Positions 2,011 to 40,953 are shown, counted from the stretch's first letter. The stretch is 64,000 nt of DNA from Actinomycetota bacterium (GCA_034188985.1 JAXHVT010000027.1:11343-75342); one strand, 5' to 3'. Numbers and translations are program-made. The notes: generated by a model not told the origin, from the sequence alone.

Positions 2011-3327
2011 TCATCGCACCTCAAAGGCGTCGATGTTAACGAAGTTGTAGTCGCCCTCGGGGTTTCCCGAACCGAGCACCTCCACGGTAAGTACGTGCTT
2101 GCCGCTCTTGAGCCCCGGTACGTTCACGTCAACCACCTGATAGATCGGGTCGGCGCTGTACTGATTGATGGTATCCACAAAGACACCGTCGATGTATACG
2201 TTGGCGGAACCGCAGGTCCAGTAATTTGCCACGATCATCTTCACCTGGTTGCCCTTGAAGGTGAAGTAAAGATTGGAGCCGGTATCCTCCGCCACCCTGA
2301 TCTTACCGTTGGTGGGACCCTCGTAGGTCTCTTCCACCCACAAGCCTTCAACGGTGATGGAGGGATCGTTCTCCTCGTAGACCACCGCGACGCTCTGGGC
2401 GGCCTCCACCTTGACGTACTCGGACTCCACACCGTAGAAGTTCACACAAGCTACGGCGTAGACGCTGCCGGCCAGGCCCTCGACATCGTAGTAGTGGTTA
2501 TCCACAAGGGGCTCGTCGTTGATCTTGCTCCATTTACCGCTGGAGCCCTGAGGCTCATAGACGTTGTAGCCGGCCAGGCCCCTCTCTGAGGATGCGTCCC
2601 AGTCGATGCTCACGCCGGGATCGATGGCCACGGCCGTTACGTTGGCCGGCGCCACCGGGGGAACGGGCGCGTAGGTCTCGACCTCGATAGCCTTCGAGGG
2701 CTCGCTCTCCTCTCCGGTCCTGGAGACGGCGGTAACCCAGTAGCGGTAGGTGCAGCCGGGTTTTATCTCGTAATCCTCGTACTCCGCTTTCTTGGTCTTG
2801 GCGATGGGCTTGGTGGGACCATCCTGTACTACATCGTCATCCGCCAACTTGCGGTAGACCAGGAAATAGCTGTAGACCTTTTTGTTGTTATTCGGGTCCC
2901 AGGTCAGCTGGATATAGGGCTCTTTCTCGGGAATGAAAGTCCCCGCCAGGTCCTTGGGCGGATTGATGATCAATACGGGAGATGGCTCAACGCTGGGAGG
3001 CTTGGCCGTCTCAACGTCGGCATTATCCTTCCCGGGGTTATCCTCCGGTACATCGGGAGCGGGAGCCGTCACCGGTACCGGATCCGCCGCCTGGGGGGCC
3101 TCGACTGCGGCCTCTTCCTCCACCGCGGTTAGCGCTGCGCTCGCCTCGCCCGCCGCCGTGATTATCTCGTCGGGGACCAGTGAGGCCACGGAGTGTACCT
3201 GCGTCCCCCCGCTATTCTCGTCGGGTGAGGATACGGGAACCGCGGCCACGCTCAAGGTGAGCGCGCAAACCACAAAAACGGCGGTGATGGCTATGCTTGC
3301 CGCTATGTGCTTCTTAAACCCTTTCAT
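2011..3327 (-). CDS. Secreted protein with two FN3-like domains and a C-terminal jelly-roll/carbohydrate-binding-like domain
   Basis: Signal peptide, acidic Pro/Ala linker, FN3 signatures (LTWDP..YLVYRK, YRYWVTAVSRTGEESEPS, GYNVY), C-terminal FTFKGNQV..ANVYIDG..GKHVLTVEV. Confidence 0.8.
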   Translation of the reverse strand: MKGFKKHIAASIAITAVFVVCALTLSVAAVPVSSPDENSGGTQVHSVASLVPDEIITAAGEASAALTAVEEEAAVEAPQAADPVPVTAPAPDVPEDNPGKDNADVETAKPPSVEPSPVLIINPPKDLAGTFIPEKEPYIQLTWDPNNNKKVYSYFLVYRKLADDDVVQDGPTKPIAKTKKAEYEDYEIKPGCTYRYWVTAVSRTGEESEPSKAIEVETYAPVPPVAPANVTAVAIDPGVSIDWDASSERGLAGYNVYEPQGSSGKWSKINDEPLVDNHYYDVEGLAGSVYAVACVNFYGVESEYVKVEAAQSVAVVYEENDPSITVEGLWVEETYEGPTNGKIRVAEDTGSNLYFTFKGNQVKMIVANYWTCGSANVYIDGVFVDTINQYSADPIYQVVDVNVPGLKSGKHVLTVEVLGSGNPEGDYNFVNIDAFEVR

Positions 3328-3771
3328 TTTAACCTTCCCACCTTTTACGTTCCTTTCTTAACCGCTTCTGTGAGCCTTTTTGCATCCTCACTTTTAAAAC
3401 GGCCTGTTATTTGACGGCGTTCACAAATTCCTGGGCTGCGGAGCCTTTCGACGGTGAAAGGTGCCTATCTAGAGGCAAGCGGAAGGCTTGCTTCTTGATA
3501 CCCCCATAGGTATTAAAATGGCTGGTTAGACATTGCCCGGGGTTAGCGTACGTTTGCATCTCGATAGATTGAACGGTCCGGCTAGATATGTGCGGTGTAT
3601 ATCATGCCACTGGCGTTGTTTGTGGCTCAGGACGGGTATGGCAGTGCCGAGACCAGTGGTTTTTCCGTCAGGGTGATGGCCGGAAAGGCACGATGGCCGG
3701 GACGGCGTATAGGGGGCACGGAGAGCGTTTTTCCGGTTAGCGGGCTCGAAGCCGGGCTATTATACCCCAGC

Positions 3772-3927
3772 CTAGCGGCAGCGGGGAGCGCCGTGAAGCG
3801 TGAGATACTGGGAATAGCAATCGGGCCAGATGATCTGGCACGCGCCGAAGAAAAAACGGTTTATGCGCATGACCTTTATCTGGGGTTTGCTATATGGTTT
3901 CCTGCCTTTTTGTATCCTGCTAGACAT
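3772..3927 (-). CDS. Putative RiPP precursor, 51 aa: MSSRIQKGRKPYSKPQIKVMRINRFFFGACQIIWPDCYSQYLTLHGAPRCR
   Basis: Translated by hand. ATG overlaps the rSAM stop (ATGTCTAG), GAGGGTG lies upstream, YxxPxI RRE-binding motif, three Cys in the C-terminal half. Confidence 0.8.
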   Translation of the reverse strand: MSSRIQKGRKPYSKPQIKVMRINRFFFGACQIIWPDCYSQYLTLHGAPRCR

Positions 3928-4954
3928 CGTCCAACACCCTCATCAAGGCTTTCGTAAGCCTGCATTTCTCCCGGCTTACGGCTATTATCTCTCCACATTC
4001 CTGATAGGAAAGCGCCCGACAAATGCCACATTTATCCAGGTAAGAGCACTCATCGCACTCTTCCGGGAGATCCATCTCCCTTCTCCGGAGTTCCTCCAGT
4101 TGTGGGGATTTCCTCCATATTTCGACGAATCTTTCCTGCTGTATGTTTCCTACCACAAGAGGGAAGGCTACACAAGGATAGACGTCACCGTAAGGGTTAA
4201 TGGCGAACACGGTGCGCCCCGCTCCGCAGTAGCGCTTGTTCACGGCGTCGGGGTCCTCCGGCCCTATGACACATCGCTGCACGTATTCGACTACGTCCTC
4301 TATCTCCTCCCCCAGGACCTGGCTGAGATAGCCAGGTAGATAATCGACCTCGAAACGCATGAAACGCTCCAGGCCTTCATCATCCAGGCGCAGCCGGGTG
4401 GGGGCCGGGTCCCGGTCGTTGCGGGGAAAGATGAGGGAGCTGAACATAACACGAACCTCGAGTTCCCCGGCCAATCCGGCTATCTCCTCCACTTCTTCGA
4501 GATTGAAATCACCCACGATAGTCTTCAGCATAAACGGTATTTCCTCCTCTTTCAGGAGGTCCAGGGCCCTGCGGGTGGCCAGGAAGGAACCCTTTTCGCC
4601 GGTAAGGAAATCGTGGGTCTCCGGGCTTGCGCCATAGATGCTCACATCGATCATCAGGGTGGGCGTCTGTCCAAGGAGGCGGATCCTCTCCCTATCCAGC
4701 AGGGTGGCGTTGGTCTGCAGGGTTATCGCGAAGTGCCTATCGACCGCGGCGGACAGCAAATGGAAGAGGTCCTGCCGCAGCAGTGGTTCCCCACCGGTGA
4801 AGGCCAGGAAGAGGCACCCGGCATCCGCCAGCTCGTCCAGCACTCCGATCCATCGCTCCAGATTCATCTCTACACCGGCGGGCTTGTACTGGTAACAGTG
4901 GCGGCAGGAGAGATTGCAGCGGTGCGTCAGTTCCAGACTCCCCGAGAAGGGCAT
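3920..4954 (-). CDS. Radical SAM/SPASM domain peptide maturase
   Basis: CNLSCRHC, TGGEPLL, SPASM motifs CGAG..INPYGDVYPC and CDECSYLDKCGICRA..C. Confidence 0.92.
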   Translation of the reverse strand: MPFSGSLELTHRCNLSCRHCYQYKPAGVEMNLERWIGVLDELADAGCLFLAFTGGEPLLRQDLFHLLSAAVDRHFAITLQTNATLLDRERIRLLGQTPTLMIDVSIYGASPETHDFLTGEKGSFLATRRALDLLKEEEIPFMLKTIVGDFNLEEVEEIAGLAGELEVRVMFSSLIFPRNDRDPAPTRLRLDDEGLERFMRFEVDYLPGYLSQVLGEEIEDVVEYVQRCVIGPEDPDAVNKRYCGAGRTVFAINPYGDVYPCVAFPLVVGNIQQERFVEIWRKSPQLEELRRREMDLPEECDECSYLDKCGICRALSYQECGEIIAVSREKCRLTKALMRVLDDV

Positions 4955-4989
4955 GAAACTCTCCTGTATCCTGTCTACGAATCCTCTGT

Positions 4990-5874
4990 CTATGGTCCTT
5001 TTCCTCCTTCAAGCGAGAAATCCTTGAGCCATGCGGCCACGTCGTCCTCCAACCTGAGACTCAGTTTGAATATCGGGACGGCATCGGCTAATCTTGAAAT
5101 ATTCTCCAGAAGCTTGCTTTCCTCGCCCTTGTGGCCGAGTCGCGGCGCGTCTACGGCCAGCTCGGCCACCGCCTCCGCGGCGGACATATACCTCAAGCCC
5201 GGGGGCAATTCGCGATGCAGGATAAAAACCGCCCTCAGGGGAAGGCCGCCGTAAGCCACTTTGCCACCCTCCCTGCCCGGCCAAGGAGTACCGAAGAGGC
5301 GCTGCCTGTCTGCTAACTCCCTCACCGCTACCAGGTCGTCCCCCAGGACCTCCGAGGAGTGAAAACTCCGGACCAGCGTGGTCTTCCCAGCCCTGGTGTG
5401 ACCCACGAACGCATACGCCTCACCCTCTATTACCACGCCGGCGGCGTGAAGAAGCGTGCCCCCTTCATCGAGAAGACGGAGCTGCAGGCAGGCCAGCATG
5501 AAGGCCTGCACGGCCTCGCGAACCGCCTCTTCCTCCTCCACCACCCGCCAAGGTCCCCGCAGGGATGGCACGGCCATCTCCCCCCTGGCCTCCCGGGGGT
5601 TGATGACGGCCAGAAGCCTCTTCTTGCCGTTGATCCCCTCGAAGAGAAGTTCGTCGCCTCTACTGGTGAGCACGAACTTGGAGGGAAAGAAATGCTTGAG
5701 CGGGTCGGCCTGAACGACCTCGTCATGGTTTAAGGCGATAACGATATCTGGATGCGAGGTATGGCTTCGTGGGGCGAAATGCCCCATGCGAGTAGGAAGA
5801 AAACCCGAAGCGTCTCCCGCTTTCGAGGATATCTCAACTTTTATTCCGGCTATAAGGTGTTCGGCTTTCCACAT
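4990..5874 (-). CDS. HPr kinase-like P-loop protein (RiPP-cluster kinase-like)
   Basis: LLHAAGV, Walker A GHTRAGKTT, LGDD, GTPW. Start moved to ATG 5874 (or TTG near 5913) to avoid overlapping the PqqD gene. Confidence 0.8.
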   Translation of the reverse strand: MWKAEHLIAGIKVEISSKAGDASGFLPTRMGHFAPRSHTSHPDIVIALNHDEVVQADPLKHFFPSKFVLTSRGDELLFEGINGKKRLLAVINPREARGEMAVPSLRGPWRVVEEEEAVREAVQAFMLACLQLRLLDEGGTLLHAAGVVIEGEAYAFVGHTRAGKTTLVRSFHSSEVLGDDLVAVRELADRQRLFGTPWPGREGGKVAYGGLPLRAVFILHRELPPGLRYMSAAEAVAELAVDAPRLGHKGEESKLLENISRLADAVPIFKLSLRLEDDVAAWLKDFSLEGGKGP

Positions 5875-5917
5875 ATATTTCCCGTATATTAGCCGTATAT
5901 TTCCTGTATCCAATTTT

Positions 5918-6235
5918 CTAGCTTCGTCCCGCCTCGATGATCTTAGCCACGCCTCGATCCACCAGGCTCGCGGCGAACTCGAGCGTGTCCTCCAGGGCCG
6001 TTTCCATCCCCACCGCGAATTCCCCGACCAACGACTCGGCGATATCCCGAAGGGTCTCGTCACCACTCAGGCGGGACCATATGAAGGAGCCCACGGAGTC
6101 CAGCTGCATAACCTCGTCCTGCTTTACGTTTACCAGGATGGTCTCCTCCCCCACCTTGCGCCAAGCGATATCCGGGAGGCGTCTCAGCCTGTCTCCGGGA
6201 CCCGGCTTCTGAAGCCCCTTTTTGCCCTCACTCAT
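5918..6235 (-). CDS. PqqD family / RiPP recognition element (lasso B1-like)
   Basis: IAWRKVGEETILVN..LDSVGSFIWSRL..TLRDIAESL..EF..D.LEF..L..RG pattern, about 100 aa. Confidence 0.9.
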   Translation of the reverse strand: MSEGKKGLQKPGPGDRLRRLPDIAWRKVGEETILVNVKQDEVMQLDSVGSFIWSRLSGDETLRDIAESLVGEFAVGMETALEDTLEFAASLVDRGVAKIIEAGRS

Positions 6236-6716
6236 TCCCGAGTTCCTCGAAGCTGCTCGGGGGCTCGTTCACCGGGTTTCCATCCACCGCCACCCAGCAG
6301 TGGCCCTCCATCTGCCCGTTGTCACCGCGCACGCCGAAGACCAGGTGGGCGTCATGACCTTCCTCGCGCAGCACCCGGGCCAGGGTCAGCGAGCGGACCA
6401 GGCAGGAGGGGCGCAAGCCTATCCTCTCCAACAGGGAGAACCATTTGCACGCCCGGTTCATAACCAGGTCCTCCCTGGTGGGGTGCCTGTCTATCAAGCG
6501 GCCATCCAGCTTCCTGAGTTCCCTGCCCGGGAAGAGGATAGAGCGCAGAAGTGCGATCCCCGACCTGGCATAGAGGCGGGCGGCCTCCCGACACTCGATT
6601 CCCTTATCTTTCCATAAGGCGATTAACCATTTCTCCTGGCGAAACATAACCCTTACAGTATACCCCCTACTATCGACGAGGTCAGCCCTCGAGCCCCCTG
6701 TCGAAATACCGATCAT
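6228..6716 (-). CDS. Lasso peptide B2-like leader peptidase (transglutaminase-like)
   Basis: SCLVRSL (catalytic Cys), LVFGV, GHCWV (catalytic His). The true start may be the ATG near 6647, just after a TATACT. Confidence 0.88.
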   Translation of the reverse strand: MIGISTGGSRADLVDSRGYTVRVMFRQEKWLIALWKDKGIECREAARLYARSGIALLRSILFPGRELRKLDGRLIDRHPTREDLVMNRACKWFSLLERIGLRPSCLVRSLTLARVLREEGHDAHLVFGVRGDNGQMEGHCWVAVDGNPVNEPPSSFEELGNE

Positions 6717-6784
6717 CTACCTGTATTTCCCTATCCAACGTTTCAACACCCCCCACCACTACTCCTCCAGCCCATCCCCAAATA

Positions 6785-6821
6785 TCAGAAAATGGGGTCA
6801 GGCACTGACATCGGACATTTT
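6785..6821 (+). repeat. REP-like element upstream of the RAYT
   Basis: tcagaaaatggggtcaggcactgacatcggacatttt. Confidence 0.9.
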
Positions 6822-6913
6822 CATCAAAAGATAAGGGGACCTCGAGATAGTATCCACTTTCGGTTGTCTCTATCAAGTAATATTATAAGTTAGGTAATAT
6901 AATAATTATTAGT

Positions 6914-7918
6914 ATGTTAGGTAATATAATGAGGCCTTTAAGAGCCAAGTACAAGGGAGCTATATATCACGTCTTTTCCAGAGGCAATAAGAACGACGAT
7001 ATATTCAAGTGTGCTGACAATAAAGGCTATTTCCTTGAATTGCTCAGTAAAGGAGTGTGTAAATATCATATAAGGCTCTACGCTTACTGTGTTATGGTCA
7101 ACCACTATCACCTTCTTATTCAGACTCTTGAAAACAATCTGTCCGAGTTTATGCATTATCTAGGCTCTTCATACGCCACTCATATAGTAAAGAATGGGTG
7201 GATAGGCCACGTTTTCGCTGGTAGGTACAAATCCATTTGCGTGGATAGAGAAGAATACCTTCTTACGCTAAGTAGATATATCCACCTGAATCCCGTTGAG
7301 GCCGGAATCGTGAAAAGGCCAGAGGAATATTTCTGGTCGAGTTATCCCGTCTACGTATGTGAGGATGAAGAGCCACCATGGATTTTTACCGAATGGCTGA
7401 TAGATCACTTTGGAACTGAATTATTCGAGGCAAGAGCCAGATACAAAGAATTCGTGGAGTCTAGAATCGAAGACATTCCTGCTTATCCCAAGGAAAGAAT
7501 TGTGGCCCAATCTATCATGGGAAAAGCAAATTTCCTGGATGAAGTCTTATTACGCATGAATGTAACCTCGCTATCGGAGAATGTAACTGGAAGAAGATAT
7601 TTCCTGAAGCGGAATAAGCTAAGCGACCTTCATGAAGCGATATGCGATTATTACGGGCTCGAGAACCTCAGGATTGTTTATGACGGTACACGTGAGGATC
7701 ACAATAAACGCAGGGAGCCCAGAAAGCTATTTATCTATCTCGCCAAGGAGCTGACGCCATCATTCTACCGGGATATCATCGAAATGCTAGGCGGGATAGA
7801 CGCTGACGCAATTACGAAGCAGTATATCAGGATGAAAAAGAAACTTGCGGAAAATCCAGCTTATAGGACTAGAATGGACGAGGTAATAAGCACGATCATT
7901 TCGCTTATCGATCAATGA
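6914..7918 (+). CDS. REP-associated tyrosine transposase (RAYT, Y1 HUH family) with C-terminal DnaA-like HTH extension
   Basis: RPLR..YHVFSRGN, HUH motif MVNHYHLL, GHVFAGRYKS, RYIHLNPVEAG, WSSY; C-terminal RKLFIYLAKELT..I.EMLGG. Likely start 6929; visibly AT-rich. Confidence 0.92.
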   Translation: MLGNIMRPLRAKYKGAIYHVFSRGNKNDDIFKCADNKGYFLELLSKGVCKYHIRLYAYCVMVNHYHLLIQTLENNLSEFMHYLGSSYATHIVKNGWIGHVFAGRYKSICVDREEYLLTLSRYIHLNPVEAGIVKRPEEYFWSSYPVYVCEDEEPPWIFTEWLIDHFGTELFEARARYKEFVESRIEDIPAYPKERIVAQSIMGKANFLDEVLLRMNVTSLSENVTGRRYFLKRNKLSDLHEAICDYYGLENLRIVYDGTREDHNKRREPRKLFIYLAKELTPSFYRDIIEMLGGIDADAITKQYIRMKKKLAENPAYRTRMDEVISTIISLIDQ

Positions 7919-7940
7919 TTTCGCAAATCACATACCTGCC

Positions 7941-9104
7941 TTGTATATGTTTAAATATAGGCAAGTCGATTATACAAGGGTGCTTTCTTTGATGAATGAT
8001 GTCAAGAAAAGGGCGAGCCATTTTATCCTTTCTGCAGTTGTATACGCATTCGGCTGCGAAGAAGAGGCTTCCAGGCTATCTAGCATATCGCAAATCCTCA
8101 CCCAATCTGACCTGAAGAGGGTGATCGGAAATGCCGAGTATCATAAGCTTGAACCGCTGTTACATTGTATCTGTGAGGATTGTATGAAGCTCGGCTATCC
8201 CTTACATATACCGGATTCTTTTCTCGACCACTTGTCAGCCGTTTACGACAGAGAGCTGGCCCGCTCAGCGATCATCCTCCACGGTGCCCGTAAAGCCTTC
8301 TCAGCTCTCGAGCATGCCGGGGTCAGGGTTGTACCACTCAAGGGAGTCTACTTATCATCCCGATTCTATGAAATGGAAGGCGCTCGCTCTTTCCGCGACC
8401 TGGATCTCCTTGTGGAAAGAGATGCACTGCCAGCATTGAACGAAGCTTTACTTGGTTCCGGATTCTTGCCCCATCCAGGAAGGCCATCCTTTGTGCCCGC
8501 CCCCGCATATACGGTATATTTTCTGCCCATGGAGAACAGCGATTTGAACATGGAGATCGACATCCACGTAGGGCTGCACTGGCCCCAGGAGTATTTCCGG
8601 CGCACCTCCCTGCGCCCCGAGGATCTGTGGTCGGAGGCTTGCCCGTATAACTACGAAGGAACAGTTACCTGGAGCATGAGCCTGGAACACCTGGTTATCA
8701 CAACATTGCTGGACGTGGCGATAAACCACCGCTACGCGCTTCTGATCAAATTCCGGGATATCGTAGAGATAATGCATAAAATGGATATCGACTGGGCAAG
8801 CGTAATCGAATGGTGCCAAACCTGGAAGGTCGTGAGCTTCGTGAGTCCAGGCTTGAGCCTCCTAAAGGGACTCCTAGCTTACTCAACCGATCTGACTGAT
8901 AATTTAAGTATCCCTGTCCCCACTTACCTGCTCTTGAAGCTCTTCTCGAGAGAACTAGCCGTGGAAGATCTGCCTGATCGCCGTGCCCGTGCTTTCAGTC
9001 CTTCCAACCTATTGTTCTTTCTGCTGGCGGATACATTCCGTGAAAGAGCTCGCGGCCTTATACATATGCCCGGTCATATCCTGAGAGGACGTCGGCGGTT
9101 CTGA
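7941..9104 (+). CDS. Nucleotidyltransferase family protein (NTP_transf_5-like)
   Basis: VPLKGVYL, R.FRDLDLLV, EIDIH motifs. Confidence 0.85.
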   Translation: MYMFKYRQVDYTRVLSLMNDVKKRASHFILSAVVYAFGCEEEASRLSSISQILTQSDLKRVIGNAEYHKLEPLLHCICEDCMKLGYPLHIPDSFLDHLSAVYDRELARSAIILHGARKAFSALEHAGVRVVPLKGVYLSSRFYEMEGARSFRDLDLLVERDALPALNEALLGSGFLPHPGRPSFVPAPAYTVYFLPMENSDLNMEIDIHVGLHWPQEYFRRTSLRPEDLWSEACPYNYEGTVTWSMSLEHLVITTLLDVAINHRYALLIKFRDIVEIMHKMDIDWASVIEWCQTWKVVSFVSPGLSLLKGLLAYSTDLTDNLSIPVPTYLLLKLFSRELAVEDLPDRRARAFSPSNLLFFLLADTFRERARGLIHMPGHILRGRRRF

Positions 9105-9356
9105 CCCATATTGATCCGCCAACCATGTGCATACCATGTATACGCGATTTGCGTCGTGGACATAAATCGAGTAGCCGCTGTTTAAATACTTATGATCCGC
9201 CCGCATGCTCACCGTGAATGCTGGTTCTTCTCTCGAGCGGAAACTCAAATGCTTGCAGTAAGACAGCGATAACAATACCCATACCATATTTGATTTACAG
9301 GCTTTATCGCAGCCGGCTTCTACGCATTCTAATCTCATCCTATTTATAGAGGCCAT

Positions 9357-9431
9357 AATGTCCGATGCCAGTGCCTAACCCTATCTTCTGACCTGCGAAA
9401 TGTCCGATGTCAGTGCCTGACCCCATCTTCT
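9357..9431 (-). repeat. Two tandem REP-like elements, inverted relative to the 6785 copy
   Basis: aatgtccgatgccagtgcctaaccctatcttctga (9357-9391) and aaatgtccgatgtcagtgcctgaccccatcttct (9398-9431). Confidence 0.9.
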
Positions 9432-11967
9432 AGAAGGAGGGGATGCCTATGGAGTCGTGGGCTCCCTGCTTGTTGTCGGTGGTCCACATGTACATGGCCC
9501 GCTCGGCCAGTACGCCTACCGGCGAGGAGCCGATGGACTCCACCACCGTGGATACGTCGAGGTTGTTCACCATGTCGTTAACGTGGACGGTAAAGCGGGA
9601 CTCGGGCTGCATGGTAAATACTATCTGCGCGGCGGGTCCGTCGGGACCCAGCAGGGTAACCTGTATCTCCGCGGTCTGCTCATTGGGATTCTGCACCAGC
9701 ACCCACTCGTCGAAGCCTGGGCGGGTGGTGCCCTCTGGCAGGTACCAGTAGGTCTGCGTCTCCGACGATCCTATCGAATCGTGTGCCCCTTGCTTGCCGT
9801 CAGTGGTGTGTATATACATGGCCCGCTCGGCCAGGATGCCCGCCCCGTCCAGCGACTCCACCACAGTGGAAACGTCGTTGTCTACAATAAAGTCGTTCAC
9901 GTGGATGGAGAAGCGCGAGTTGGCCCCCATATCGAACCTAAACTCGTTTCCGATACCCTCGGGGGTAAGGAACTTGGCGTTCACCTTGGTGCCGAAATCG
10001 TTCGGGTTCATCACCAGCACCCACTCGTCGAAGCCTGGGCGGGTGGTGCCCTCTGGCAGGTACCACTCCTGCCTGGGACAGCACAGGCCGATGGAGTCGT
10101 GCGAACCCCGCTTGCCGTCCAGCGTTGCCATGTACATGGCCCGCTCGCAGAAGACCGGCAGGGTCTCCCCCGCCACCTGGGTCAGGCATTCCACCTTGGT
10201 GGAGACTTCCTTATCCGGCACCTCCGGGTTTACGTGGATACTGAACCTGCTGCGGGCCCCGATACCTATCTCCAGCTCCTTCTCCAACCCTCCCCTGCCC
10301 AGGAACTGCACTCTCACCATCACCTCGATATCGTTGGGGTTCTGTATGAGAACCCACTCGTCGAAGCCGTAGTAGGTGGCTCCCTCGGCCAGGTACCAGA
10401 CGGAGCTGGGGGTGAGAATACCCTTGGAGTCATGGGCTCCCCACTTACCGTCCGGCGTACCATACATGTACATAGCCCGTTCGGCCATTATCTTGGCCCC
10501 TCTCACCGAGGTCACCATGGTGGAGACCTGCTCCTCCGGGGCCCACTCGTTGACGTGGATGGTGGACCGGGAATTGGGTAGAGCGTCGATCAATGGGCCC
10601 TCCCTTGGACCGGTGAGGGTCTGAAAGACCACCCTGAACTGGGCGTTGCTGTTCGTGGGGTTCATCACCAGAACCCACTCGTCGAAGCCCTTTCCGGTAT
10701 ATCCCTCCGGCAGGTACCAGCTGAAGGTCTGAAAACCGTATACCACGCAGTCGCCGGCGCCGTTGTACCAGGCCACGTTATATACCTCGTTTCCCGAAAT
10801 GCTATACCTATCGTTGAGGTTTATACTAAAGGCGCCGCTGCCGTCGGTATTGACCTCGAATACCACCGGATCTACGAAAGCGTCCATGGTTATCCTCAGG
10901 TAGGTATTCGGTGGCGCCGTTCCCGAGACCATGTTGGTGTAGGGATCCGCGATTGAGGATATGTCCTGGACGGTGATGCTACGGTTGCCTCCCATGTTAC
11001 AGCGTACCTGGTCACCTGGGACGATGTCATATCCCACGAACCAGGCGTCGAGGAATCCATCCCCCGCCGTAGTGGTATTGCGGGACTCCGACCCGGCATA
11101 GACGGTGAGGTTGGTGCTGGGCAGGTAGTAGCCCATTACCTCATCGTACTGGGGATAAACCACCAGCGTACCCCCTGTATTGGCCGCCTCCATCACCGAG
11201 TTGCCGCCGCCGTCCGTGGAATAGACGAAGGCCACGTCGCCTCGCCGGATATCGAATCCGGATATCGTAGCGCTATAGGCGCCACCCGAGGCGGTGACCT
11301 GCTTGCTGGCGACCCCAGGGGGTATATCACCGTAGTAAGTCGAGGGCGCCTGTATGTATACGTCCACCTTATTGCCCGTTTTAGCTGCACCGCTGACCCT
11401 GTTGTTCGCCGCACTCACGACGGCGGTCAGGGTGCAGTCGACCTCAACCGCTGCCCCCCCGGCCATATCCGTTACCTTTATCTTGTCCCCGGACTGTATA
11501 TCGCCAGATACGGTGGAGAAGTCGGCGGAAAAGAATTTCTGGGAATCCGTGGTGGTATTCACCGTCTTAATGGTGCCCCCACCCCTGATAAGCTCTACCT
11601 TAACTTGAGCGTTAGCATGGGTGGTGTTTCCGGTTACGATATCGAAGGGCAGGGATACCCTAAGCCCTGACTGCACGCTGGCGGCCTCGAAATCCCCGGT
11701 GTTAGCCCCCAGGTCGTCGGGCCAGGCCTCCTCGCGATCCTCCAGCAGGGCATGGGCCTCCTCGGGGCTCCCGGGCATCCCGTCCAGGGGATACTGCAGG
11801 GTTTCGGTTCCGGATGCGGCGCCATGGGCGGTCCGCATGGAACCCGGCAGGGACGCGAGGGGCGAGAAGAGCAGGAGAACGAGCGGCAGGGCCAGCAGGA
11901 TGACGTATAGCCTGGACGCCGGTCTCCTATCTTCTTTCATATCCACTCCCGGGTGCTTGTTCGACAT
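9430..11967 (-). CDS. Secreted surface protein with Ig-like N-terminal region and four C-terminal DUF5719-like repeats
   Basis: Signal peptide; 4x WYL(P/A)EG..GFDEWVL..NP...(A/C)ERAMY...HDS.G. Confidence 0.85.
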   Translation of the reverse strand: MSNKHPGVDMKEDRRPASRLYVILLALPLVLLLFSPLASLPGSMRTAHGAASGTETLQYPLDGMPGSPEEAHALLEDREEAWPDDLGANTGDFEAASVQSGLRVSLPFDIVTGNTTHANAQVKVELIRGGGTIKTVNTTTDSQKFFSADFSTVSGDIQSGDKIKVTDMAGGAAVEVDCTLTAVVSAANNRVSGAAKTGNKVDVYIQAPSTYYGDIPPGVASKQVTASGGAYSATISGFDIRRGDVAFVYSTDGGGNSVMEAANTGGTLVVYPQYDEVMGYYLPSTNLTVYAGSESRNTTTAGDGFLDAWFVGYDIVPGDQVRCNMGGNRSITVQDISSIADPYTNMVSGTAPPNTYLRITMDAFVDPVVFEVNTDGSGAFSINLNDRYSISGNEVYNVAWYNGAGDCVVYGFQTFSWYLPEGYTGKGFDEWVLVMNPTNSNAQFRVVFQTLTGPREGPLIDALPNSRSTIHVNEWAPEEQVSTMVTSVRGAKIMAERAMYMYGTPDGKWGAHDSKGILTPSSVWYLAEGATYYGFDEWVLIQNPNDIEVMVRVQFLGRGGLEKELEIGIGARSRFSIHVNPEVPDKEVSTKVECLTQVAGETLPVFCERAMYMATLDGKRGSHDSIGLCCPRQEWYLPEGTTRPGFDEWVLVMNPNDFGTKVNAKFLTPEGIGNEFRFDMGANSRFSIHVNDFIVDNDVSTVVESLDGAGILAERAMYIHTTDGKQGAHDSIGSSETQTYWYLPEGTTRPGFDEWVLVQNPNEQTAEIQVTLLGPDGPAAQIVFTMQPESRFTVHVNDMVNNLDVSTVVESIGSSPVGVLAERAMYMWTTDNKQGAHDSIGIPSF

Positions 11968-40778: not shown

Positions 40779-40916
40779 CATGGGTCAAGGCTGCTTGGAG
40801 AGCTCGGCCCGATACCCTGCCCGATGCCTTAAGCCCCGGGGTTAAAGCCGGGTTTGCCCCGCCCGGTACCAGGCCAAAGGCACGTTTCCGGGACTGATCC
40901 CGGATTCTTACTGGAC

Positions 40917-40953
40917 AAAATGTCCGATGTCGGTGCCTGACCCCATCTTCTGA
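40917..40953 (-). repeat. REP-like element
   Basis: aaaatgtccgatgtcggtgcctgaccccatcttctga. Confidence 0.9.

Follow-up and report, generated by a model that had tools for sequence, protein, structure and literature searches.

The DNA analysed here, a stretch of 64,000 nt from an Actinomycetota bacterium (GCA_034188985.1 JAXHVT010000027.1:11343-75342; in the following, the window), carries on its minus strand, between positions 3772 and 6716, five closely spaced genes that include a small open reading frame (ORF) of 51 codons. With a probability that we put at roughly 60%, these genes form a working operon for a peptide made on the ribosome and modified after translation (RiPP), related to cassettes of the SynChlorMet (SCM) type, which has gained a lasso-type leader peptidase and whose product is made without a macrolactam. 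To our knowledge, SCM (ScmA, ScmC, ScmD, ScmE/ScmF) has been defined in silico and is experimentally uncharacterised. The parts of the operon are of known kinds, namely the B1 and B2 proteins of lasso peptide pathways, radical S-adenosylmethionine (radical SAM, rSAM) maturases with a SPASM domain, HPr-kinase-like peptide kinases and the in silico SCM cassette; their combination appears not to have been studied by experiment.

Gene content and gene order of the cluster

The operon and the nucleotidyltransferase gene associated with it comprise the following features:

3772..3927, minus strand: precursor peptide gene, 51 aa; conserved small ORF after the rSAM gene
3920..4954, minus strand: radical SAM/SPASM maturase, 344 aa (PF04055 82.8 bits, PF13186 49.2 bits)
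4990..5874, minus strand: ScmC-family P-loop kinase-like protein, 294 aa (PF27840; fold of phosphoenolpyruvate carboxykinase (PEPCK) and HPr kinase)
5918..6235, minus strand: PqqD-type recognition protein (RiPP recognition element, RRE), 105 aa (PF05402 53.4 bits)
6228..6716, minus strand: lasso-type B2 cysteine peptidase, 162-aa ORF (PF13471 and NF033537 above cut-off)
7941..9104, plus strand: NTP_transf_5 nucleotidyltransferase-family protein, 387-aa ORF (PF14907 109.9 bits)

A preliminary description of this region had reported five tightly coupled minus-strand genes and a plus-strand nucleotidyltransferase gene, and all six were found again with these coordinates and families and with the corresponding junctions. 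The spacings B2/PqqD, PqqD/kinase-like, kinase-like/rSAM and rSAM/small ORF are -8, 43, 35 and -8 nt, the ATG of the small ORF lying inside the end of the rSAM gene (8-nt overlap with the rSAM stop). The ORF of the kinase-like protein extends to 358 aa and overlaps that of PqqD; the alignment with homologues begins at residue 2 of the 294-aa form. A further ORF upstream of B2 (6682-6876, 64 aa) was rejected as a gene, having neither a family match nor a tblastn match in 18 related loci, and a scan of 3300-8000 for promoters and terminators gave counts no higher than in shuffles.

These 18 loci, fetched from relatives in nine genera and searched by mapping the window proteins onto them, all keep the order B2-PqqD-kinase-like-rSAM, with two of the rSAM genes cut by contig ends. 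Of 51 genomes of the class, 19 proved to carry the kinase-like gene, and all of these belong to two families in a single order: 15 of 23 genomes in one family, three of five in the other, and the window's own genome, as against none of the 22 remaining genomes.

The precursor peptide

The 51-aa ORF (MSSRIQKGRKPYSKPQIKVMRINRFFFGACQIIWPDCYSQYLTLHGAPRCR) is a real gene under purifying selection. Its homologue lies directly 3' of the rSAM gene in all 16 loci that extend past that gene (17 copies), and one locus has two copies in tandem (L032, at 5146-5298 and 5634-5786). Another genome (G039) likewise has two precursor copies, on two short contigs (C6 and C8), while its cluster contig ends inside the rSAM gene. 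In an alignment of 18 copies the columns Y12, P15, I22, R24, F25, F26, C30, C37 and Y38 are invariant, each being encoded by at least two codons, and K14, M17, V19, F27, W34, P35 and S39 are nearly so (the window has I17). Each copy contains three cysteines, two of which form invariant columns; the third, close to the C-terminus (C50 in the window), is present in every copy and is not scored as invariant because it stands one column earlier in the two copies of a single locus. The peptides end in Cys-Arg or a similar pair and keep an internal Ser or Thr right after the second Cys (S39 in the window). The median pairwise ratio of nonsynonymous to synonymous substitution rates (dN/dS) is 0.26, computable for 124 of 153 pairs, the rest being saturated or failed.

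Outside these loci the peptide is rarely encountered. When 1.84 billion representative proteins were searched with a profile, eight matches came up at E<=0.001, four of them at <=1e-10, and a second database gave 28 clusters. The ORF had previously been described as unannotated, which holds for the window itself and less so for its relatives, some of whose public records, from Actinomycetota metagenome-assembled genomes (MAGs), name it 'hypothetical protein'. Among 401 sampled Actinomycetota genomes, strong matches to the precursor profile (E<=1e-20) occur in 15, all of the same order; the same search gave one intermediate match, followed up below, and seven weak others. Metagenome scans for two distant precursors (P0078 and P0080) found no match. 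Conservation, dN/dS and the small number of database matches together indicate a family that is real but narrow. One test set beforehand was whether homologous clusters have a small ORF that is conserved and bears a YxxP motif; they do.

Probable leader recognition and the predicted cut site

The leader bears the motif Y-x-x-P-x-(M/I), formed in the window by Y12, P15 and I17, which resembles the YxxPxL motif of lasso peptide leaders; when the family was tested for a lasso-type leader, Tyr and Pro proved invariant and Met/Ile nearly so. According to the available part of PMC10368454, YxxPxL occupies positions -17 to -12 of lasso leaders and constitutes the recognition element for B1, which accelerates the kinase as well as B2, and Thr at position -2 can be replaced by Ile or Val. 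Applied to the window peptide, the lasso spacing would place the cut after G28, with F27 at -2 and a predicted core of about 23 residues (A29-R51); the hydrophobic residue at -2 would then be a likeness to the Ile/Val(-2) group of lasso peptides as that part of the source presents it. Two distant peptides share the leader through F-F-F-A and continue into differing, shorter cores with three cysteines. Since the leader is shared through F-F-F and the cores diverge, the boundary between them is expected just after F-F-F, a placement that does not depend on the lasso spacing.

The probable partner of this leader is the PqqD-type protein. Its best NCBIfam match is ScmD (38.7 against a cut-off of 100), followed by lasso PqqD chaperones, all below cut-off (30.7 against 80 and 22.3 against 70 for the lasso-specific models), and its solved relatives include the lasso B1 proteins TbiB1 (7.2e-5) and TfuB1. 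A predicted complex of PqqD protein and precursor reached an ipSAE of 0.56, compared with 0.01 for the best control; three runs share at least 88% of contacts, with a partner pLDDT of at least 53. The mark applied to such predictions is reached by 58 of 80 solved complexes and by two of 110 mismatched pairs, yet at ipSAE values up to 0.60 it is reached by only seven of the 80 and by both of the passing mismatches. As complexes of lasso B1 proteins with leaders have already been solved (TbiB1), the pass may reflect likeness to those structures, and the model lends weak support to leader binding.

The B2 peptidase and the absence of a lasso cyclase

The first gene of the operon matches the lasso B2 family well above threshold (PF13471, 60 bits with a cut-off of 26; NF033537 lasso_biosyn_B2, 57.5 bits with a cut-off of 33) and is single-copy in its own genome. 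Cys105 and His139 are invariant in 19 sequences. The true start may lie later than that of the ORF, given that homologues align from about residue 17-27. The structural model has a pLDDT of 78.7.

The preliminary description had stressed that no lasso cyclase accompanies this peptidase, and the statement can be extended from the window to the genome. In the genome of origin (97.5% complete) the sole match to PF00733 is partial (21.7 bits over profile positions 20-82; the frame, of 372 aa, lies on another contig) and the cyclase model NF033561 finds no match; this search disclosed no cognate cyclase, and none lies on the cluster contigs of relatives. Frames of at least 580 aa with PF00733 occur in eight of the 19 cluster-bearing genomes, always off the cluster contig, and in none of the other 11; among 30 genomes of the order, one such frame is also present where the kinase-like gene was not found. 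The predicted core, moreover, has no conserved acidic residue at positions 7-9, position 8 being D in the window and N, Q, A, L, F or Y in relatives.

The radical SAM/SPASM enzyme

In the rSAM protein the CxxxCxxC motif starts at residue 13 and there is no N-terminal recognition domain; having no N-terminal extension, the enzyme would need a discrete PqqD protein. Its cluster cysteines are conserved in 17 sequences. The best NCBIfam matches, all far below cut-off, are NirJ2, AhbD, MftC, ScmE (128.3 against 400), StsB and PqqE, and the best solved relative is SkfB (E 3.2e-19). Thioether formation is favoured because it is in their cysteines that the divergent cores agree and because SkfB is the closest solved relative; the preference is weak, since MftC, PqqE and heme-pathway enzymes score alike.

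The ScmC-family protein and the nucleotidyltransferase

A protein search gave 70 homologues of the kinase-like protein at E<=0.001, most of them with a precomputed PF27840 assignment; the same family, named ScmC by the Atlas, is recorded on the window protein. In 38 scanned members of the family, HprK_rel_B was found in 33, ScmC in 20 (E<=0.01) and HprK_rel_A in six. Compared with PDB sequences, the family profile matches ATP-dependent PEPCK (E 2e-4) and HPr kinase (E 2.5e-3) over the region H...G-x-x-G-K-T...G-D-D, and the AlphaFold model (pLDDT 92.8, pTM 0.90) gives PEPCK as the top Foldseek match (E from 5.9e-8, TM 0.45-0.56 by query length), HPr kinase/phosphorylase (HPrK/P) scoring 1.1e-4. 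No variation occurs at H143 and K164, and none at D179 and D180 among 32 close sequences; over all 38 sequences these two aspartates are conserved to at least 90%. A His-Lys-Asp-Asp motif is reported for lasso-tailoring kinases in the available part of PMC9266682, and the four residues appear to be its positional equivalents. Fold and invariant residues thus uphold the earlier kinase-like assignment. From the Atlas, as leads only, we note a cluster of proteins of about 650 aa with both Radical_SAM and ScmC domains, and ScmC-family clusters in Bacteroidota, Acidobacteriota, Myxococcota and others.

Within the same family, 14 of the 15 loci have the NTP_transf_5 gene next to the operon, and the one exception is a contig of 3.7 kb. 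The gene mostly diverges from B2, but one genus, with three loci, has it immediately upstream of B2 and in the same direction. It is missing from all three loci of the second family, whose genomes each have one copy on another contig. Over the class the gene is present in 20 of 51 genomes, that is in 18 of 19 cluster-bearing genomes versus two of 32 others, counts which overstate independence because the genomes are kin; in the nineteenth cluster-bearing genome the copy is truncated at a contig end. The carboxylate motifs are conserved in 14 sequences. As far as the available part of PMC9266682 goes, PsmN, likewise annotated as a nucleotidyltransferase, adds a hexose to a phosphorylated Ser of a lasso peptide. 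The NTP_transf_5 protein is likely to be, as previously suggested, an accessory enzyme of the peptide system, to which adjacency and co-occurrence link it.

Related cassettes in other lineages

The intermediate match to the precursor profile belongs to a 2.8-kb contig with PqqD, ScmC-like and rSAM/SPASM genes and a 48-aa ORF, which has a Y-Q-K-P leader followed by F-F-L-A-C and further Cys. In the second actinobacterial class represented by this contig the ScmC-like gene was found in five of 48 genomes, one of which combines B2, ScmC-like, PqqD and rSAM/SPASM genes with a 61-aa ORF (leader Y-E-K-P-V-L), an ABC ATPase and an ABC-2 permease. The cores in these other cassettes contain two or three cysteines. 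The leader pattern [KR]..Y.[KQRS]P.[MILV] occurs nine times in six-frame translations of seven loci, compared with 2.3 +/- 1.5 times in shuffles, and six of the nine occurrences lie beside cassette genes, one in each of six actinobacterial loci. A locus from Dehalococcoidales (L052, 4623-8117) has NTase-like (nucleotidyltransferase-like), ScmC-like, PqqD and rSAM/SPASM genes; the queries used revealed in it no B2 and no related small ORF, and the leader pattern found no match there. The ORF that follows these genes may, judged by eye, be a peptidase of S24/S26 type.

In 301 sampled Chloroflexota genomes, ScmC exceeds the curated cut-off in a single genome, with five copies. Four of these five loci contain altogether six ORFs of 94-106 aa that start with M-R-Y-(Q/E)-K-P or M-E-K-T-K-Y-E-K-P and are rich in Cys and Gly after the leader; the leader pattern is found seven times in the ScmC loci, against 1.2 +/- 1.0 in shuffles. 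One of them (L085) encodes a fused PqqD-ScmC protein of 441 aa (6770-8092, minus strand) beside three tandem ORFs of about 100 aa with M-R-Y-(Q/E)-K-P (8353-8670, 9140-9436 and 9744-10037, all minus strand), and the query used found no rSAM gene there. The ScmC-family enzyme is thus fused in some cases to the recognition protein and, as an Atlas lead, in others to the rSAM enzyme. Of eight small ORFs tested, one matches the NCBIfam precursor model ScmA weakly (E 0.069) and the others do not; the window precursor gives no match to it at E up to 10. Judged from these sequences, the combination of Y-x-K-P leader, PqqD domain and ScmC-family enzyme is a recurring unit, which rSAM, B2, nucleotidyltransferase and exporter genes join in various ways.

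Comparison with known systems

The closest resemblance is to SCM. The kinase-like protein has an ScmC domain, ScmD is the best model for the PqqD protein, ScmE matches the rSAM enzyme over its full length, and Y-x-K-P leaders are shared with the peptides beside bona fide ScmC genes. The window cluster nevertheless differs in missing the ScmC, ScmD and ScmE equivalog cut-offs, in a precursor with no ScmA match, in one rSAM gene instead of two, and in the addition of a lasso B2 and an NTP_transf_5 protein. With those lasso pathways that have split B1 and B2 proteins and a kinase or nucleotidyltransferase (paeninodin, pseudomycoidin, Bsf), it shares the B2 family, the YxxPx(L/M/I) motif, an HPr-kinase-like enzyme that has the His, Lys, Asp and Asp residues, and a protein annotated as a nucleotidyltransferase; its PqqD protein resembles B1. 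What sets it apart is that no cyclase was found, that an rSAM/SPASM enzyme stands in its place, and that both a conserved acidic acceptor and a C-terminal Ser are missing from the peptide.

Sactipeptide and ranthipeptide systems (SKF, SCIFF) likewise combine an rSAM enzyme having a full SPASM domain with a Cys-bearing core, and SkfB is the closest solved relative of the window enzyme, whose formation of thioethers is a prediction. Here, in contrast, the recognition domain is separate from the enzyme, the peptidase is of B2 type and an ScmC-family partner is constant. In the pathways of pyrroloquinoline quinone (PQQ) and mycofactocin, too, an rSAM/SPASM enzyme works with a separate PqqD-family protein, a small precursor and a peptidase, and MftC and PqqE score like the other best matches; the precursor motifs differ, however, and the window cluster has no downstream oxidoreductase or glycosyltransferase genes. 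We know of no ScmC-like kinase or B2 protein in the PQQ and mycofactocin pathways.

The cluster had been put forward as a possibly uncharacterised RiPP class. Literature searches, whose coverage excluded most subscription journals and supplements, found no paper on this system. The suggestion needs qualifying all the same: the core of ScmC-like, PqqD and rSAM/SPASM proteins is related to SynChlorMet, a cassette that NCBIfam and Pfam already list.

Transposase, repeat and flanking genes

Between B2 and the nucleotidyltransferase gene lie two features that the preliminary description, though right about the six genes listed above, had overlooked:

6789..6822, no strand assigned: 34-bp repeat resembling repetitive extragenic palindromic (REP) elements, upstream of the B2 gene; 24 genome copies
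6914..7918, plus strand: RAYT/IS200-like tyrosine transposase (RAYT, REP-associated tyrosine transposase) with a DnaA_C-like tail (PF01797 37.4 bits)

The RAYT-like gene (NF047646 61.2 bits, below the cut-off of 80) has a GC content of 0.42-0.44 against about 0.58 nearby, is single-copy in the genome and is not found at this position in any of the 18 related loci. It is an insertion between B2 and the nucleotidyltransferase gene and stands outside the peptide system. The 24 genome copies of the 34-bp repeat (at <=3 mismatches) compare with none in a reversed control; others in the window lie at about 1606-1639, 1652-1685, 9396-9429 and 40916-40949, and a depth spike together with many contig ends marks the copy at 6789-6822. 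Lying beside a single RAYT/IS200-like gene, the repeat looks like one half of a REP/RAYT pair in an actinobacterial MAG.

The flanks are occupied by surface-protein genes that are syntenic with the cluster and had also escaped earlier notice. On the minus strand, 2-1321 and 2011-3327 encode two paralogous proteins with fn3 and CE2_N-like domains, and 9430-11967 an 845-aa repeat protein with a DUF5719 match. These fn3/CE2_N-like and DUF5719 proteins have N-terminal hydrophobic segments and adjoin the cluster across genera.

Proposed pathway and alternative explanations

The pathway that we favour would take the 51-aa peptide as its substrate. The discrete PqqD protein would bind the YxxPx(M/I) leader and present the peptide to three enzymes with no recognition domain of their own, namely the rSAM enzyme, the kinase-like protein and B2. 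The rSAM/SPASM enzyme would crosslink the core, most likely by thioether bridges from the three conserved cysteines, and the ScmC-family protein would phosphorylate a hydroxyl at the expense of a nucleotide triphosphate. The best candidate for this hydroxyl is the Ser/Thr after the second Cys, a guess based on its being the only one kept across the distant cores; phosphorylation of an internal residue (Ser3) is reported for BsfK in the available part of PMC10368454. The NTP_transf_5 protein would possibly then elaborate the phosphate. B2 would remove the leader about 17 residues past the Tyr, that is after G28 with Phe at -2, releasing a core of about 23 residues, and no macrolactam would be formed. 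This is in essence the pairing of lasso-type leader removal with rSAM crosslinking, instead of macrolactam formation, that had been proposed at the outset: the gene set and the missing cyclase agree with it, whereas the chemistry is deduced from genomes.

Several points weigh against this pathway. To begin with its chemistry, not only crosslinking, phosphorylation and nucleotidylation but also the order of steps and the cut site are proposals drawn from gene content. The rSAM enzyme scores about equally against MftC, PqqE and NirJ/AhbD, which form no thioethers, and stays below every curated cut-off. The kinase-like protein of the window itself misses the family thresholds (ScmC 13.7 bits against 125, E 0.029; HprK_rel_B 15 bits, E 0.01) and has no match in the local Pfam copy, and the precursor, unlike the substrates of paeninodin-type kinases, has no C-terminal Ser. 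For B2, the third catalytic residue could not be placed in the comparison of 19 sequences, and the model finds no significant Foldseek match in the PDB (E<=0.001; best E 0.04); the top non-significant entries (E>=0.04), arylamine N-acetyltransferases, vasohibins and transglutaminases, fit the fold and do not count as evidence, and phmmer against PDB sequences returned nothing relevant. At the level of the locus, family scans of the window's cluster detected no exporter or immunity gene, the flanks being surface-protein genes. Some genomes from the same genera that are 98% complete (G040 and G046) gave no sign of the cluster, so that the system is accessory, and the transposase-like gene in the intergenic region of B2 and the nucleotidyltransferase gene might disturb expression. 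Finally, in one assembled contig of a relative about 95% identical (run X4), some 2.5 kb are added within the rSAM gene (window about 4782-4787) and the precursor gene has gained 1 nt close to its 3' end (about 3782), the latter change matching an 80-aa variant protein; these disruptions may mean that the cluster is decaying in that strain, or may be artefacts of assembly.

Operon and precursor could be as described and the chemistry still be another: the rSAM enzyme might form C-C or C-O crosslinks on aromatic residues (F-F-F, W-P, Y), or catalyse epimerisation or oxidation, the three cysteines being used to form a disulfide, to bind a metal or for an adduct made later. We regard this as improbable, though as an alternative to be reckoned with, for the conserved aromatics W34, Y38 and F25-F27 adjoin cysteines, and the C-C-bond-forming SPASM enzymes MftC and PqqE have comparable scores. 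It is the three cysteines alone, however, that are kept in the cores of the distant peptides, which lack W-P and Y; two or three cysteines also recur in the cores of other cassettes, and F-F-F precedes the predicted cut site. That the peptide gives rise not to a secreted product but, as with PQQ or mycofactocin, to a cofactor or a redox or signalling molecule inside the cell is distinctly unlikely. The layout of discrete PqqD, rSAM/SPASM and peptidase, with MftC and PqqE among the best rSAM matches, would suit such a molecule, as would the lack of an exporter in the cluster, the strong conservation of the core and the position of the locus between the same flanking genes in nine genera, which suggests vertical inheritance. 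Yet no partner oxidoreductase is present in the cluster, near-complete close relatives were found without it, and the cores of related cassettes vary, one of them being followed directly by an ABC exporter.

Very little speaks for the notion that the small ORF is not the substrate and that the enzymes modify another protein, for example the secreted fn3 or DUF5719-like neighbours. The latter are syntenic with the cluster in most loci and carry N-terminal hydrophobic segments; the small ORF, on the other hand, is translationally coupled to the rSAM gene, always present and equipped with the lasso-recognition motif, and in other lineages it is the YxKP small ORF, not these neighbours, that the cassette retains. 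Least credible of all is a decaying, non-functional remnant of a lasso cluster that has lost its cyclase. The presence of a B1-like protein, B2 and a YxxP leader with no cyclase would be expected of such a remnant, and one near-identical relative does show disruptions. Against this, the five genes are intact in 18 loci of nine genera, the precursor is under purifying selection, the catalytic Cys/His, P-loop, Fe-S cysteines and precursor are all conserved, positions 7-9 of the predicted core lack a conserved acidic residue, and the same layout recurs in another class.

Significance

Seen in a wider frame, the window cluster could represent one branch of a broad RiPP class defined by a Y-x-K-P leader, a PqqD-type protein and an ScmC-family enzyme that acts as a core and not a tailoring enzyme; in this branch a lasso B1/B2 module would be combined with rSAM crosslinking, and the product would be phosphorylated or nucleotidylated, thioether-bridged and without a macrolactam. 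We offer this as a tentative generalisation, at less than even odds. The host organisms are uncultured; with five or six small genes, the system is nonetheless directly testable by co-expression. The Y-x-K-P leader beside a PqqD and ScmC pair provides a handle for mining genomes for related peptides. If the favoured pathway is true, the widespread ScmC family would gain a concrete candidate substrate, with a defined leader, three conserved cysteines and one conserved Ser/Thr, and the recognition and removal of leaders in the lasso manner would extend beyond lasso peptides and could be combined with radical SAM chemistry.

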